Below, in pieces: positions 59,160-64,000 of a stretch of 64,000 nucleotides of DNA. The stretch covers positions 32,001 through 96,000 of IMG/VR virus record IMGVR_UViG_3300035698_009252; one strand, given 5' to 3'. The translations under genes and the position numbers were made by a program. The stretch is from a virus. Within the stretch, counting starts at the first letter, position 1; each line of letters opens with the position of its first letter. The notes beneath the pieces are model-generated. The model did not search any database, was not told where the DNA came from, and worked only from the letters and a program-made list of their open reading frames with translations.

Positions 59160-60965
59160 CTACGCATTTACGGGCGTCTGTGCCGCCCAACCCTTACGAA
59201 TCTGCTCCACAGTGGGCAGAGCAACCTCGTCCTTATCTTCTGTCAGGCCCTCGGTTTGCGCAAGCATTCCGAACACCTTCTCGTTGAACCCGGCAAGCAG
59301 GTTCACGTGGGTGCCCTCGTCCACAATCGTGTCACCGTACCCATTCAGGTTGATGCAGTGCAGCCAAGTCTCCTTGGCCCCCTTACCCGATGCCACGTAC
59401 TTTGCCCAGGTGTCACACACAGCCTTCTCGCTGTTCGGGCTCTCCGAACGGTAGCCACGCGCACCCGTCATGCTGGTGTCATCCCACGCCTGGAGGTCGG
59501 ACAGGAGGATAACCCGGTCAGGAGTCAGCCCCTTCTCGATGAGCCACAGCGGAATCTTGAAGGCGTTGGTGTTGTGACCGTTCACGCCGTCATCCCCAAT
59601 CTTGCGGGCCACATCGAGCACTGTATCAGTCTTCGTCCACATAACCTCGCGGATATCCGTTGCGAAAGCGCACACGTAGGAACGCTCACACCCCTTGGCC
59701 ACGATACCGGTTAGCACGTTTGCCACGTCGGCCACCGTCACCTCGGACTTGTCCGACAGCCTGTTGTTCGACATGGACCTCGAAGCGTCCACGAAGATTG
59801 CCGTGGTACCCGGCAGGGAAACCCCCTCCGCTGCGTAGTTTACGGCCAGCTCGACAGCGGCTTCCAGCTCACCCCGGTCGGCCTGGTCCACACCATCAAC
59901 CTGGAGGGCCTTCGATGCGGACAGGAACCGGAACGGGAGCTGCTTGGACCGCTGCACGGCCTGCTTGCTGGAGATATACGCGGACACCTTAGCGATATGC
60001 TCTTGCGAGACCTTCGCCTGAAGGATGTTCCGCAGGTTCCGCAGCATGGCCATGTAGCCGAGCAGCTTCTCGTCAACGAGGAACTCCCAAACACCCTTCT
60101 TGTCGTCCCCGAACTGGGAAAGCAGAACCTCCCAGTTCACCTTGGACTTGCGAGCAAGTTCCTTGGTGATGTTATCGAAAGCCGTCCGCTTGTTCATGGC
60201 CGCACGTGCCGCCACAATCGGGGCGTCCTTCTCATCCGGGATTGCGCCTGTGATGAAGTAATTCGCGATGGGCTTCGCCACCGGCCAGTCGGCCTTGCGC
60301 TTCACCCACCCAAACACGTCCTTCCACGTCGGGAAGTCCGGGCTGTCATACTTCACCAACCCACGCTCTCCAAAGCCCGAGATGGCGTCCCCCAGGCCGA
60401 AGTTCAGGCCATTGGCCAGAGACTTCATGCCGAAGAAGAACCGGTGAACGAGCAGACACGTCTTAACCTCGTCCGGCCTCTTGACAATGTGCGGGGCGTA
60501 CCGACGCACAAGCGACTTGGTCGCATCGAGCCTGGACGCCACAACAAGGAGCACCTGCGGCGTGAGCCGGATGTACATCTCATTGCGGAGCCAGTTGGCG
60601 ATAGAGAGAAGGTCCTCCGGGTTGTCCCCGGTCCCCACATCGATAGCCGTTGCCACGACCTCGCGAGCCACGTCGTTGAGTTCCTCGCAGGAAGCAAAGC
60701 CATTCAGCTTGCCATCCACGATTTCGAGACGCCGAGCGAGTTGCTCGAACTTGCCGCCCTGCACCCTCTTCGGGACAATGGCGTCACCGTTATAGAACTT
60801 CGGCTCGGCGAAAAACGCCCCACCGGTCATGGTGACCAGCTTGAGTGCCGGGTCCTTAATCTCGAATGCGACGCCGCCTGCGCGGTTTACGGTTGCATTC
60901 GGCTGCTTGCTCGGCTTACGAGCGTTCGCGGACTTGGTCCGCGCCATCTTCTGAAGAGTACTCAT
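59160..60965 (-). CDS. TROVE-domain Ro60/Rsr-like RNA-binding protein with C-terminal vWA domain
   Basis: VNRAGGVAF, RPDE, YMAMLRNLRNI, SKQLPFRFLSA, MIDAS-like VDASRSM, ILLSDLQ; AGGAGGAGG RBS before ATG 60965. Confidence 0.92.
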   Translation of the reverse strand: MSTLQKMARTKSANARKPSKQPNATVNRAGGVAFEIKDPALKLVTMTGGAFFAEPKFYNGDAIVPKRVQGGKFEQLARRLEIVDGKLNGFASCEELNDVAREVVATAIDVGTGDNPEDLLSIANWLRNEMYIRLTPQVLLVVASRLDATKSLVRRYAPHIVKRPDEVKTCLLVHRFFFGMKSLANGLNFGLGDAISGFGERGLVKYDSPDFPTWKDVFGWVKRKADWPVAKPIANYFITGAIPDEKDAPIVAARAAMNKRTAFDNITKELARKSKVNWEVLLSQFGDDKKGVWEFLVDEKLLGYMAMLRNLRNILQAKVSQEHIAKVSAYISSKQAVQRSKQLPFRFLSASKALQVDGVDQADRGELEAAVELAVNYAAEGVSLPGTTAIFVDASRSMSNNRLSDKSEVTVADVANVLTGIVAKGCERSYVCAFATDIREVMWTKTDTVLDVARKIGDDGVNGHNTNAFKIPLWLIEKGLTPDRVILLSDLQAWDDTSMTGARGYRSESPNSEKAVCDTWAKYVASGKGAKETWLHCINLNGYGDTIVDEGTHVNLLAGFNEKVFGMLAQTEGLTEDKDEVALPTVEQIRKGWAAQTPVNA

Positions 60966-61031
60966 AGCGTACCTCCTCCTTCTTTGAAGCGTGCCCAACT
61001 GTAGGGCACCAATTTACATTTCCTGACAAAC

Positions 61032-61065
61032 AAAAAGCCGATGGTCAACTTTTGACCATCGGCTT
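61032..61065 (-). terminator. intrinsic terminator after tRNA-Met
   Basis: Long stem AAGCCGATGGTCAA/TTGACCATCGGCTT with a T-run. Confidence 0.85.
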
Positions 61066-61069
61066 ATCG

Positions 61070-61146
61070 TGGTAGCGGGGACCAGATTTGAACTGGTGAC
61101 CTTCAGGTTATGAGCCTGACGAGCTACCAAACTGCTCTACCCCGCA
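61070..61146 (-). tRNA. tRNA-Met(CAT), initiator type
   Basis: TGCGGGGTAGAGCAGTTTGGTAGCTCGTCAGGCTCATAACCTGAAGGTCACCAGTTCAAATCTGGTCCCCGCTACCA; 1:72 mismatch; CCA encoded. Confidence 0.95.
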
Positions 61147-61157
61147 AATCATACATA

Positions 61158-61437
61158 AAGCCGATACCAATGGGCACAAAGAGTTGCCGAGGGATATACC
61201 ATGATGGCCACATGGGCCTTTAGGAGTCCCTCTATACGGCTCCGTTTTAGGGGAGACGGCTACGATTGACCCCGTAGCCGAGGCTGCACATAATACCCAG
61301 TGCGGGGTCTCCGTTCCCCAGGACTTGGTAGTCCCCGGTTGGGATATTCGGATGGCTTCAGCGTCCGAACCTACGGACTCCACCAACCAGTGTTACTTTT
61401 CAGTAATGAAGTAACTCTTCATTGAAGCGTATCGCTT
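61158..61437 (-). ncRNA. putative Y-RNA-like RNA with a large structured internal domain
   Basis: Ends pair (AAGCGATAC/GTATCGGCTT; GAAGAGTT/AACTCTTT); many internal stems; just upstream of tRNA-Met and the Ro60 gene. Confidence 0.55.
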
Positions 61438-61495
61438 CTATTTTCTGTTTCAATTCAAAGAACAAACGACTGAAGCGTACCAGCCATCACAAACA

Positions 61496-62285: not shown

Positions 62286-62677
62286 TGGACGTGGGGAGAA
62301 TCGAACTCCCGTCCTGGACAGGCTCACCGTAAACCTCTACATGCTTATCCAGCTACTTTCTTTTGCCGCTGGCGGGCCGCACAACAGTCCTTCCCAGAGC
62401 ACCCCGTAATAAACGGTTCTGTTGTAGTACTCATTGGATGACATAGCCCGGCCACCCGCCGGGGTTCTACCTCTGTCGTTGCCGGACATCCCTTAGAGGT
62501 GTAGGGGAGCCGACACCGGGGCTGTTAAGCCGCCAGAGCGCGAGCGCCCTGGACTCCGGGGAATTGAAGAACGTTGCCGTTTACTTCAGTGTTGGAAGGC
62601 TTTTTAGGAGGCCAACCTTACCAACCTCCGCATGCAGTTAACGACTTGCATCTGCCAGTCGAAACCTTGTCACGCCC
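62286..62677 (-). ncRNA. ssrA: tmRNA
   Basis: 5' GGGCGTGACAAGGTTTCGAC; 3' GGACGGGAGTTCGATTCTCCCCACGTCCA; G3-U70; tag ORF 62525-62578 GNVLQFPGVQGARALAA*. Confidence 0.93.
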
Positions 62678-62780
62678 ATATTTTCAAAGAACGACCGTAG
62701 CATTCACCGTCTACCGCTACGAGTCAACATCAAATTATACTCTATCCATTGCTCCAGGGAGCATCAATTCTGAAAAAATT

Positions 62781-63230
62781 ACTAGCAGGCCGGGTTTTCG
62801 CCGACACACTTACCTACCCCACCCTCCACGTAGAGCCATAACTTCAACGGGATAGGGTCATAGGCTTAAAGCTCAGTCCTAATCGTTTGCCCCACCTCCA
62901 ACCGGGAGGCTACGGGTTCTCTATTCCACCCAAGGAAGGCCATTTACATCTGCAAGACAGGCTTGCTCCTCTCTCGCGTCCGGGCTCTCACCGGCACCCC
63001 TGGACTTTGCAACCTACTTCTTTCGGTTCGGCGACCCGTTCGGATTCTAACCTACTAAGGGATTTTTGCGCACGGGGACTATTGGTGCGCGGGGTGTGTT
63101 ACGGCTCCAGCAACATCCAAGGTGTTCCGGTACCGGGTAGTCCGCAAGAAGGGGACAAGACCACATTCTCGCGCTTGCCTGGTGTGTCCGGGCTTGGATT
63201 CGCCTTCACCAGCGCCACACCGCTGCCAGT
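62781..63230 (-). ncRNA. putative ~450-nt structured ncRNA
   Basis: Termini pair ACTGGCAG/CTGCTAGT; no minus-strand ORF; boxA-like element just upstream. Confidence 0.5.
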
Positions 63231-63247
63231 AAAATATCAATGAACAA

Positions 63248-63409
63248 ATCGAGCGACAGGGTTTTCACCTGCACGACGGGTATTTCATCTTTGCTTCAAG
63301 ACTGCGTTTCTTGATTTGGCTTTCGCTCGCCTCAAGGCATTCAGTCAACACCCCGTCTATTTCACCGCATCGCTGCTGGCAGTTTAGCGTCTAATTCCGC
63401 CACGCTCAA
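63248..63409 (-). ncRNA. tRNA-like RNA (Leu-type D arm) with an expanded central domain
   Basis: TTGAGCG/CGCTCGA acceptor; TGGCGGAATTAGACGC D arm; GCAGG-TGAAAAC-CCTGT T-like arm; GACGGG/CCCGTC closes a long arm. Confidence 0.6.
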
Positions 63410-63419
63410 AAACCAATGT

Positions 63420-63988
63420 TGCCTGCCCCGCCCTCACGTCCTCTTACTCTCGGACAGAGGCTTCAGCTTCGCCACGCACCGAGGTCCGGTAATCCGTGAC
63501 AGTAACCCGTCAGACAACAAATCAAAATCAAAGGGCAGGCTTGTTCGCCACAGTCCCAGAGCGGGCCGTTTAACTCCCGCTTTTCTTCCGGCATTGTTCC
63601 TTCTTCTGCAAGCAGAAGTTCACCGGGCCAATTGCAGACTAGCTGCTGGCCGATGCCGAAGCTGAGGCTGTACCTGCCATGAGGCACCGCCGAAGACGTG
63701 GCTGGTTTACGCATCCCAGCCGTAGCCCTGTTTTGCCTCCGCAAATGCGGAGATGGCTTCCCGGATTGTCTCCGGCATGGGGACGACGGTTTCCCGTCAA
63801 TCCTCCACCACCCGGATTTTTGATAAGGTTCCGGGGAACCGCATCGGAAAGGCCGCAACAGCACCCGAAGGCTGCCGTACGACGGTTCCCAACGAAAACG
63901 CCTTTGGGCCAGTCGCACCAGAGATTTGTGCCACACTGTTTTTTTTCTTGGCTCCCGGCGATAGTTCTTACCAACCGGCCCAAAGGTA
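63420..63988 (-). ncRNA. hairpin-dense region, probable ncRNA(s)
   Basis: Successive stems CCTTTGGGCC/GGCCCAAAGG, GGGAACCG/CGGTTCCC, GCCTGCCC/GGGCAGGC; ORFs here lack recognisable features. Confidence 0.4.
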
Positions 63989-64000
63989 AATCTTTCAAAG

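Follow-up and report, generated by a model that had tools for sequence, protein, structure and literature searches.

We describe an RNA gene island of a phage that, on balance, appears to be built around a particle of the protein Ro60 and a Y RNA. The island lies at the end of the stretch analysed (the window: 64,000 nucleotides, bases 32001-96000 of a 139.6-kb IMG/VR record that is, by estimate, ~43% complete). Every DNA run that contains part of the stretch comes from a salt-lake metagenome, and the source is an uncultured giant (jumbo) phage of that habitat. The island takes up ~3.1 kb of the minus strand (64058-60966), which carries all genes in this part of the window, and it runs ~60 nt beyond base 64000, up to a conserved gene at 6059-6430 of L003 (the 20 kb of the record around the window end; other L numbers denote related contigs). 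Its single real protein gene encodes a protein resembling acyl carrier protein (ACP). At least eight co-oriented RNA elements lie in the island next to the Ro60 gene, where an earlier reading of the DNA letters (the sequence-only reading) had counted at least seven.

Relatives were collected through a Ro60 protein search (25 viral loci and the best 80 of 169 metagenomic ones), with an additional one, L031, from a DNA-motif scan. Where Ro60 is 45-78% identical to that of the window the gene order is kept, running from a basic-protein gene through variable RNAs, a transfer-messenger RNA (tmRNA), the ACP-like gene, one or more Y-like RNAs and tRNA-Met to Ro60 and two small genes; the complement of large RNAs differs from relative to relative. 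Standard tools recognise three of the island RNAs: the tmRNA and tRNA-Met, which score above the Rfam cut-offs, and a ribozyme resembling that of hepatitis delta virus (HDV), the one additional match of any meaning when thresholds were relaxed. The cmscan check named by the sequence-only reading supports it to that extent, and gave no match for four further RNAs, here called A1, A2, B and H. The features that carry our argument are the following.

60965-59160, minus strand: Ro60/TROVE protein, 601 aa (PF05731, 72.4 bits; phrog_850).
61433-61163, minus strand: RNA H, a Y-RNA-like RNA (match to covariance model R1 at 61153-61436, 31 bits, E 7e-4).
61014-60984, minus strand: Ro60 leader element, comprising AAUUG, a hairpin GUGCCC/GGGCAC with a 7-nt loop, and GCUUCAA, 3 nt 5′ of the Shine-Dalgarno sequence.

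The Ro60/TROVE gene of the sequence-only reading is confirmed, both by the Pfam match and by a match to the Ro60 structures of phage phiLo (PDB 9L5Y/9KOP, E 7e-8), in which a DxSxS (MIDAS-type) motif appears as DASRS in the 9L5Y alignment. Its vWA domain matches PF25045 at 20.9 bits, below the cut-off of that family, and its ATG start codon comes after AAGGAGGAGG. The arrangement is shared by Ro60 and YrlA of bacteria and phages (RF02553; PMC4201824) and by phiLo with its Yrl1 and Yrl2 (PMC12135203): in each, at least one small RNA is encoded in the same orientation immediately 5′ of the gene for a TROVE+vWA protein. The Ro60 of phiLo, a Thermus phage, binds Y-like RNAs encoded upstream of its own gene and complexes host polynucleotide phosphorylase (PNPase; PMC12135203).

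RNA H spans 271 nt and begins with a 5-bp terminal stem (GAUAC/GUAUC) and an asymmetric internal loop (GCUUCAA / UGCCCAUUG), past which lie the second stem (7 bp), the motif UUACUUC and a ~200-nt insert with multiple hairpins. It is probably co-transcribed with tRNA-Met. Nearly every relative has one or two such RNAs 5′ of tRNA-Met in a common frame: the first strand of a 5-bp terminal stem leads through NCUUCAG into a 7-bp stem and (U/A)UACUUC, an insert that varies between 20 and 250 nt follows, and the RNA then returns by way of the second 7-bp strand, CGAYUAUUG and the closing strand of the terminal stem; the insert of RNA H itself has homologs in L048, L036 and L033. Across 13 small members of the family, the 12 pairs of the basal module are formed in 92% of cells, compared with 66% in shuffles and 39-51% in slid registers, and 10 of the 12 pairs have changes on both sides. 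With the R1 model, 0.94 Mb yielded 65 matches (E<=1). All are on the Ro60 strand and mostly within a few hundred nt 5′ of Ro60, and some belong to loci with a Ro60 of only 25-30% identity. Both the link to Y RNAs suggested by the sequence-only reading and the covariation with homologous loci that it had named as a check are borne out by these results, with an RNA of Y architecture directly upstream of Ro60 and a covarying family confined to the Ro60 strand of related loci.

RNA H is not a member of the YrlA family as modelled (RF02553). It gave no RF02553 or tRNA match at E<=5, and four relatives likewise gave no RF02553 match (E<=5-10); the cultured phage CcrPW gives three YrlA matches. The Rfam YrlA consensus, on CcrPW, has the same stem-loop-stem-CUAC layout as the RNA H family, and the family shares with YrlA-type Y RNAs the paired ends, the internal loop, the second stem and a YUAY-type motif (UUAC in RNA H). 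Unlike them, RNA H and its close relatives have no domain with T and D arms, which are near-invariant in YrlA: the small members have no such tRNA-like domain, and the large ones, RNA H among them, carry an insert of different hairpins. The 5′ GNCGAA(N)G motif of YrlA is also absent from the family, in which the loop reads NCUUCAG / CGAYUAUUG, with CGA(U/A) on the 3′ strand; the 5′ GNCGAA motif was described by Chen et al. (PMC4201824). The insert of two distant R1 members has hairpins that resemble T and D arms and are ordered as in YrlA. RNA H is best read as a divergent relative of the YrlA-type Y RNAs in which the tRNA-like domain has been lost or replaced. In the cultured phages CcrPW, Satis and HGTV-1, R1 gave matches at E~3 only, and two of these phages hold an exact GGUUACUUC on the Ro60 strand. 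A half module, GGUAC-GCUUCAG plus a 7-nt stem strand, is seen at 61481-61455 (minus strand), ~50 nt 5′ of RNA H; it may offer an alternative fold with the same 3′ strand, or be what is left of another, small Y RNA.

The leader element of the Ro60 mRNA is a circular permutation of this basal module: the ...AUUG loop strand comes first, then the terminal stem and NCUUCA, and the free ends of the Y RNA are joined by a loop. When only the two short motifs served as anchors, a fully or nearly paired 5-bp stem was seen between them in 20 of the 30 clade leaders (22 of 30 when a 1-nt offset was allowed in two loci); of 8,367 control windows taken from these loci, 4.6% passed the test. The 19 aligned leaders had been chosen on the basis of five of the six pairs; their stem is 96% paired compared with 74% in shuffles, five of six pairs show compensatory changes, and the unselected sixth pairs in 15 of 19. 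The stem covaries, position 2 being U-A in 10 leaders and C-G in 8, and position 4 C-G in 6 and G-C in 11. A model of the element (R2) gave 25 matches in 918 kb (0.92 Mb), 24 of them exactly in Ro60 leaders; five of these leaders belong to loci outside those used for model building. R2 did not detect the element at distant Ro60 loci, nor in the cultured phages CcrPW, Satis and HGTV-1 (weak or no matches), and a comparison of loop-motif variants between the leader of each genome and its own Y RNA gave no strict match.

The presence of a copy of the basal module in the leader supports that module as the site of Ro60 binding, and, taken together with the linkage to Ro60, leads us to regard it as the probable docking site. 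It also suggests, on the simplest reading, that Ro60 may bind its own leader, block initiation and so throttle its own synthesis, a mode of control found with many RNA-binding proteins. Ribosomal-protein operators and the thrS operator are examples of translational autoregulation by molecular mimicry. As in those systems, the protein's own mRNA leader would hold a copy of its RNA ligand site beside the ribosome-binding site; unlike in them, the copy is circularly permuted, with a hairpin loop closing the free ends of the Y RNA.

Upstream of RNA H lie the tmRNA and the ribozyme that follows it; an enzyme encoded elsewhere in the record may help to finish the tmRNA end.

62677-62286, minus strand: tmRNA, full length (RF00023, 105.9 bits, cut-off 47, model positions 1-374).
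62285-62216, minus strand: HDV-like ribozyme of theta type (RF02682, 37.8 bits, E 1.8e-4, cut-off 44; RF00094, 29.2 bits, cut-off 50; both below the Rfam gathering cut-off).
G000:C1:119816-121330, outside the window and ~25 kb from the island: nucleotidyltransferase, 504 aa, with a PolyA_pol head and RNA-binding and HD domains.

The tmRNA is complete, with an acceptor stem (GGGCGUG/CACGUCC) that contains a G3.U70 pair and a tag reading frame, GNVLQFPGVQGARALAA, that ends in ALAA before a stop, all of which supports the role in ribosome rescue given to it by the sequence-only reading. Its 3′ end is the discriminator A62286, CCA is not encoded, and the ribozyme begins at the very next base, G62285, which opens P1; the predicted cut falls between these two bases, at the 5′ end of P1. 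CCA would therefore need to be added after cleavage. The same junction is found in L031 and L066. All 23 pairs of the double pseudoknot (P1/P1.1/P2/P3/P4) are able to form in the window and in both of these relatives, P1 has two compensatory changes across the three sequences (slid controls pair 15-41%), and the GGC(C/U)AAGA segment, the expected home of the catalytic C, is kept in all three; the candidate in the window is C62227, in J4/2. P1 is closed at the cut site by a G.U wobble in the window and in L066, and by A-U in L031. In relatives without the ribozyme, the tmRNA end encodes ...ACCA.

The domain make-up of the 504-aa protein is that of bacterial CCA-adding enzymes, which makes it a probable member of that group. 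The HD domain of bacterial CCA-adding enzymes can remove 2′,3′-cyclic phosphates. The arrangement recalls the theta ribozymes (Kienbeck et al. 2024, PMC10879173), where an HDV-like double pseudoknot likewise starts at the base next to the discriminator of an acceptor RNA that lacks CCA and the phage likewise encodes a CCA-adding enzyme; the gene for this enzyme (tRNA adenylyltransferase) is enriched in phages that bear theta ribozymes (PMC10879173). The differences lie in the RNA that is trimmed, a tmRNA here and a tRNA there, and in the host phage, a salt-lake jumbo phage here and gut phages there: that work describes theta ribozymes only 3′ of phage tRNAs and only in gut phages, and leaves tmRNA unmentioned (PMC10879173). 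Twister-P5 ribozymes scoring above the Rfam cut-off occur in the RNA arrays of two relatives (L006 5448-5524 and L008 4182-4270), so that, with the HDV-like ribozyme of the window, self-cleaving ribozymes appear more than once among the RNA arrays of the clade. One of the two twister-P5 sites is ~100 nt 3′ of a second CAU tRNA, and the other directly follows an RNA-B-like segment.

Only 4 nt past the ribozyme begins a further RNA with a tRNA-like fold.

62211-62036, minus strand: tRNA-like RNA E, 176 nt (RF00005, 26.6 bits; fold z -3.1).

The tRNA model matches 173 nt of RNA E (62211-62039) with a score under the cut-off of 29. The RNA folds as a cloverleaf with a D arm, a canonical T arm and an acceptor stem of 7 bp that includes G3:U70; A73 and an encoded CCA are present as well. 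At the anticodon position, it has a 6-bp stem capped by a GAAA (GNRA) tetraloop, with no 7-nt anticodon loop, followed by an irregular extra arm of ~100 nt. Its homolog in L035 (1950-2095, 146 nt) lies 12 nt past the CCA-encoding tmRNA of that contig; the acceptor stem is the same, a D-stem G-C is replaced by A-U on both sides, and the anticodon stem covaries in sequence with the GAAA cap kept. Other tRNA-likes with CCA ends, found between tRNA-Met and Ro60 in L031 (12666-12749) and L033 (~286-372), have UUCG-capped anticodon stems; tRNA look-alikes with a predicted anticodon-less fold are a recurring component of the islands of this clade. G3:U70 and A73 form the identity set of alanyl-tRNA synthetase (AlaRS), and their presence in RNA E makes charging with alanine plausible for this alanine-type mimic, which is known from two sequences only (window and L035).

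mascRNA is a tRNA-like processing handle at the 3′ end of MALAT1. RNA E resembles such handles in its tRNA-like fold with CCA and no functional anticodon loop, placed at the end of another RNA at an expected RNase P cut, and differs from them in keeping the alanine identity elements, in encoding CCA, and in that a predicted ribozyme already sets the upstream tmRNA end. Two possible links of RNA E to Ro60 were considered and rejected. An apparent YrlA GNCGAAG motif consists of the GAAA tetraloop and adjoining bases and is not kept in L035; and no Ro60-docking module was recognised in the extra arm by eye (two sequences) or by the R1 model. The anticodon stem is a short GNRA-capped hairpin and not a Ro60-binding stem.

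Downstream of RNA H, the island closes with a tRNA and a terminator.

61146-61070, minus strand: tRNA-Met(CAU), probable initiator type (ARAGORN; RF00005, 64.5 bits).
61065-61035, minus strand: intrinsic terminator directly after tRNA-Met, with a 14-bp stem and then a U-run.

CAU, A11:U24, an unpaired 1:72 and an anticodon stem with G-C pairs mark bacterial initiator tRNAs. The island tRNA has CAU, a U1xU72 mismatch, A11:U24 and an encoded CCA but, from the alignment, only two of the three anticodon-stem G-C pairs, and it is immediately 5′ of Ro60 in relatives too. The terminator is the sole strong terminator-like site on the minus strand of the island.

The part of the island farthest from Ro60 holds three RNAs, two of them large.

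~63990-63535, minus strand: RNA-A1, ~455-460 nt (nhmmer match to L031 10597-11043, E 2e-30).
63519-63407, minus strand: RNA-A2, ~113 nt, with a 9-bp closing helix (UGUUGUCUG/CAGGCAACA) and then a U-run.
63230-62781, minus strand: RNA-B, ~450 nt, its ends pairing as P1 (ACUGGCAG/CUGCUAGU, 8 bp), then a U-run.

RNA-A1 is preceded by a ATTCTTTGA motif that straddles the window end. It shares near-identical blocks with L031 and partial ones with L074 and L036, a CCGGGUGGUGGAG...GGGAAACC block is kept in four loci, and its folding z-score is -3.57. RNA-A2 is the weakest of the RNA calls: its fold alone is non-significant (z -0.7), and in its homolog (L036 946-1115), which has an internal insertion, a U.G of the closing helix is replaced by C-G. 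RNA-B has a GTTCATTGA motif 6 nt upstream (63245-63237) and homologs with long common blocks at L006 4721-5186 and L031 9530-9944 (nhmmer 4e-26), with a weak one in L008. The pairing of P1 and P2 is preserved by compensatory changes in L006 and L031.

None of the three RNAs matched Rfam 15 (A1 at E<=10), and the 1.4-kb upstream stretch gave one chance match only against the whole Rfam library (cmscan, E<=10). RNA-B and RNA-A1 share some motifs with RNase P RNA by eye, and this identity was rejected, there being no RF00010 match at E<=10, no partner for the P4-like strand and a local hairpin in place of the 3′ motif. ROOL and group II domain models gave no match, the ROOL negative being weak since the ROOL control gave no match anywhere. 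A pattern scan for further RNA-B homologs brought up L032 and an L131 group that are unrelated and probably coding, leaving L006/L007, L031 and the weak L008. A separate RNA at 62035-61793 was likewise rejected (fold z -0.9); its 3′ part is a conserved leader of the ACP-like gene, and the stretch as a whole is probably that leader.

We propose that these elements work together as follows. The HDV-like ribozyme would release the tmRNA by cutting exactly after the discriminator base, whereupon the 2′,3′-cyclic phosphate would be removed and CCA added, plausibly by the phage CCA-adding enzyme with its HD domain. RNase P would cut at the tRNA-like RNA and the tRNA, freeing the neighbouring RNAs. 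Ro60 and the Y-like RNA, bound through its basal stem and internal loop, would make up a ribonucleoprotein (RNP) that, by analogy with bacterial and phiLo Ro60, might recruit a host 3′-5′ exonuclease or gate the Ro60 cavity, and could survey or turn over structured RNAs, including the abundant RNAs of the phage itself. When Y RNA became limiting, free Ro60 would bind the permuted module in its leader and block the adjacent ribosome-binding site, which would set the stoichiometry of Ro60 to Y RNA. The tmRNA and initiator-type tRNA would keep ribosomes available in infection. A more far-reaching version of this proposal, which we put forward tentatively and regard as doubtful, makes the island a largely self-sufficient RNA system with phage-specific signals, trimming by ribozyme and tRNA-like RNAs, finishing by the phage CCA enzyme and supervision by a Ro60-Y RNA particle with leader feedback, in which RNA E, as an alanine acceptor without an anticodon, and both RNAs of ~450 nt would represent new functional classes of RNA with effects on host translation or on RNA decay.

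Several points weigh against an island built around a Ro60-Y RNA particle. The RNA ends, ribozyme cleavage and Ro60 binding are predictions. RNA H has neither a YrlA model match nor the 5′ GNCGAA, its binding by Ro60 being deduced from architecture and linkage, and the leader element, whose covariation comes from leaders chosen in part for their pairing, could bind another factor or serve in processing or stability. The HDV-like match is under the curated Rfam cut-off. RNA-B folds no better than shuffles (z -0.39), and the comparative support comes from three sequences for RNA-B and from two and a partial third for RNA-A1. SmpB and RtcB were not found in the record, an absence that says little given its ~43% completeness.

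The alternatives draw on some of the same observations. That A1, A2 and B are not RNAs at all, and instead are decayed genes or DNA-level regulatory regions, might be argued from the folding of RNA-B and RNA-A2, no better than that of shuffles, and from a 189-aa open reading frame (ORF) that can be drawn across A1 (63463-64032). We consider this highly improbable. The ORF is spurious: mismatches to the closest relative are spread evenly over codon positions (56/52/53), indels measure 1, 2, 4, 5, 9, 11 and 12 nt, the homologous stretch of L031 has stops in all frames, and the ORF has no homolog. With no coding signature and no conserved ORF, the three segments have conserved blocks that alternate with variable stretches and terminal helices upheld by compensatory changes, and they are co-oriented inside an RNA-only island. 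A second possibility, which we hold to be unlikely, is that the island is a cluster of processing and transcription units without functional integration, brought together, like the tRNA clusters of phages, by shared promoters, terminators and cutting by RNase P and ribozymes, with the tRNA-likes as mere handles and Ro60 adjacent only because its Y RNA is in the cluster. The common upstream motif and U-runs that flank several RNAs would fit such a cluster, as would the ribozymes that punctuate the arrays (HDV-like here, twister-P5 in L006 and L008), the tRNA-like RNA 12 nt past the CCA-encoding tmRNA of L035, and the variation of the large-RNA set among relatives. Punctuation, however, has no need of the AlaRS identity (G3:U70, A73) and CCA that RNA E keeps, the tmRNA 3′ end in the window would already be made by a ribozyme, and the order of Y RNA, tRNA-Met and Ro60 is tightly conserved together with the leader mimic.

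The sequence-only reading had proposed a module that survives host defences, in which the mimics and large RNAs decoy host enzymes that target tRNA and mRNA, the tmRNA rescues ribosomes on cleaved mRNAs, and Ro60 RNPs clear or protect damaged RNAs; this, too, now seems improbable. In its favour, the tRNA-likes keep the acceptor end, CCA and T arm, which are targets of toxins that modify tRNA 3′ ends, tmRNA acts on non-stop mRNAs, and the authors of the phiLo study suggest an escape from defence through the hijacking of PNPase by phage Ro60 (PMC12135203). Anticodon nucleases, however, are the best-known tRNA-cleaving defences, and for these the decoy idea fails: the anticodon stems of the mimics are capped by GNRA or UUCG tetraloops, and without an anticodon loop the mimics cannot be decoys for such enzymes. 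The mimics could decoy only acceptor-end enzymes, and equally good readings are RNase P 'punctuation' or quality control of the phage's own RNAs. Here, no known defence or anti-defence gene is tied to the island, the alanine-type mimic is seen in just two sequences, and a defence role is indistinguishable from general translation support. We continue to favour an island organised around a particle of Ro60 and Y RNA.

Loci of this kind, in which Ro60 and Y RNAs are found amid tRNA and tmRNA genes, are already known from cultured phages (PMC4201824, PMC12135203). Ro60 homologs and Y-like RNAs, in some cases with tRNA and tmRNA genes, are reported from mycobacteriophages, Caulobacter phages of the CcrColossus type and Bacillus phage G (PMC4201824, PMC12135203, PMC1475703), which resemble the phage described here in being large and in combining a Ro60 homolog with tRNA, tmRNA and Y-like RNAs. 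Their Ro60 proteins are at most ~28% identical to that of the window, in contrast, and the window adds the ~450-nt RNAs, a ribozyme-ended tmRNA, an anticodon-less alanine-type RNA and the leader mimic. In the literature searched we found nothing on the tmRNA-ribozyme junction, nor any link of tmRNA with HDV-like ribozymes, and nothing on a Y-RNA subfamily without the tRNA-like domain, the alanine-type anticodon-less RNA or the large RNAs; it likewise gave no description of a leader copy of the Y-RNA module or of Ro60 autoregulation.

The role of Ro60 and Y RNAs is poorly understood in bacteria, as it is in animals. This clade supplies a compact and strongly covarying module that is the probable mark of the Ro60 docking site, and a natural second copy of it in the Ro60 leader makes feedback control directly testable. 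The RNAs inherited along with it are candidate substrates or partners. Predicted ribozyme-made 3′ ends extend from phage tRNAs to tmRNA, in a habitat far from the gut, and several RNA families, two of them large, are beyond recognition by current RNA libraries.

The remaining features of the locus are the protein gene inside the island, a sequence motif found upstream of several of its RNAs, and the gene at its upstream border.

61789-61496, minus strand: ACP-fold protein, 97 aa (PF00550, 46 bits, cut-off 20.8; phrog_5934).
62692-62684, 61463-61455 and 63245-63237, also 59090, 49374, 44026 and 37240, minus strand: sites of the sequence motif (G/A)TTCTTTGA.
L003 6059-6430, equal to 64059-64430 of the window numbering and past the window end, minus strand: small basic protein, 123 aa.

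The ACP variant noted in the sequence-only reading is real. The protein has DEL in place of DSL, with Glu at the position of the phosphopantetheine Ser, and 9 of its 10 orthologs in related loci also have no Ser at this position. A protein without the carrier serine cannot act as a carrier; the predicted ACP-like protein is a conserved member of the island.

Several island RNAs share the short upstream motif (GTTCTTTGA) and trailing U-runs. In the form (G/A)TTCTTTGA, the motif ends ~3-8 nt before the predicted 5′ ends of tmRNA and RNA-B (6 nt in the window) and 13-22 nt before the Y-like RNAs of relatives. The GTTCTTTGA copy in the window terminates 6 nt before G1 of the tmRNA, and 9 of 15 clade tmRNAs have the upstream motif. 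A longer form (TTCTTTGATAT, 7-8 nt, ATAGGTAGGAGG) stands before protein genes in the window. A phage promoter element and a processing signal are both possible roles for the motif.

The 123-aa border protein, a possible RNA binder with a very Lys/Arg-rich N-terminus, gave no Pfam or PHROG match; at least five related contigs have it at the same position, on the upstream border. On the other side of the locus, two small genes (79 and 83 aa; 59031-58497, minus strand) follow directly 3′ of Ro60, in an order kept in close relatives. Farther upstream, past the window end, the minus strand carries a gene for a RecQ-type helicase (L003 12872-15391, equal to 70872-73391 of the window numbering) that is interrupted by an intein, with matches to Hint and intein-splicing domains.

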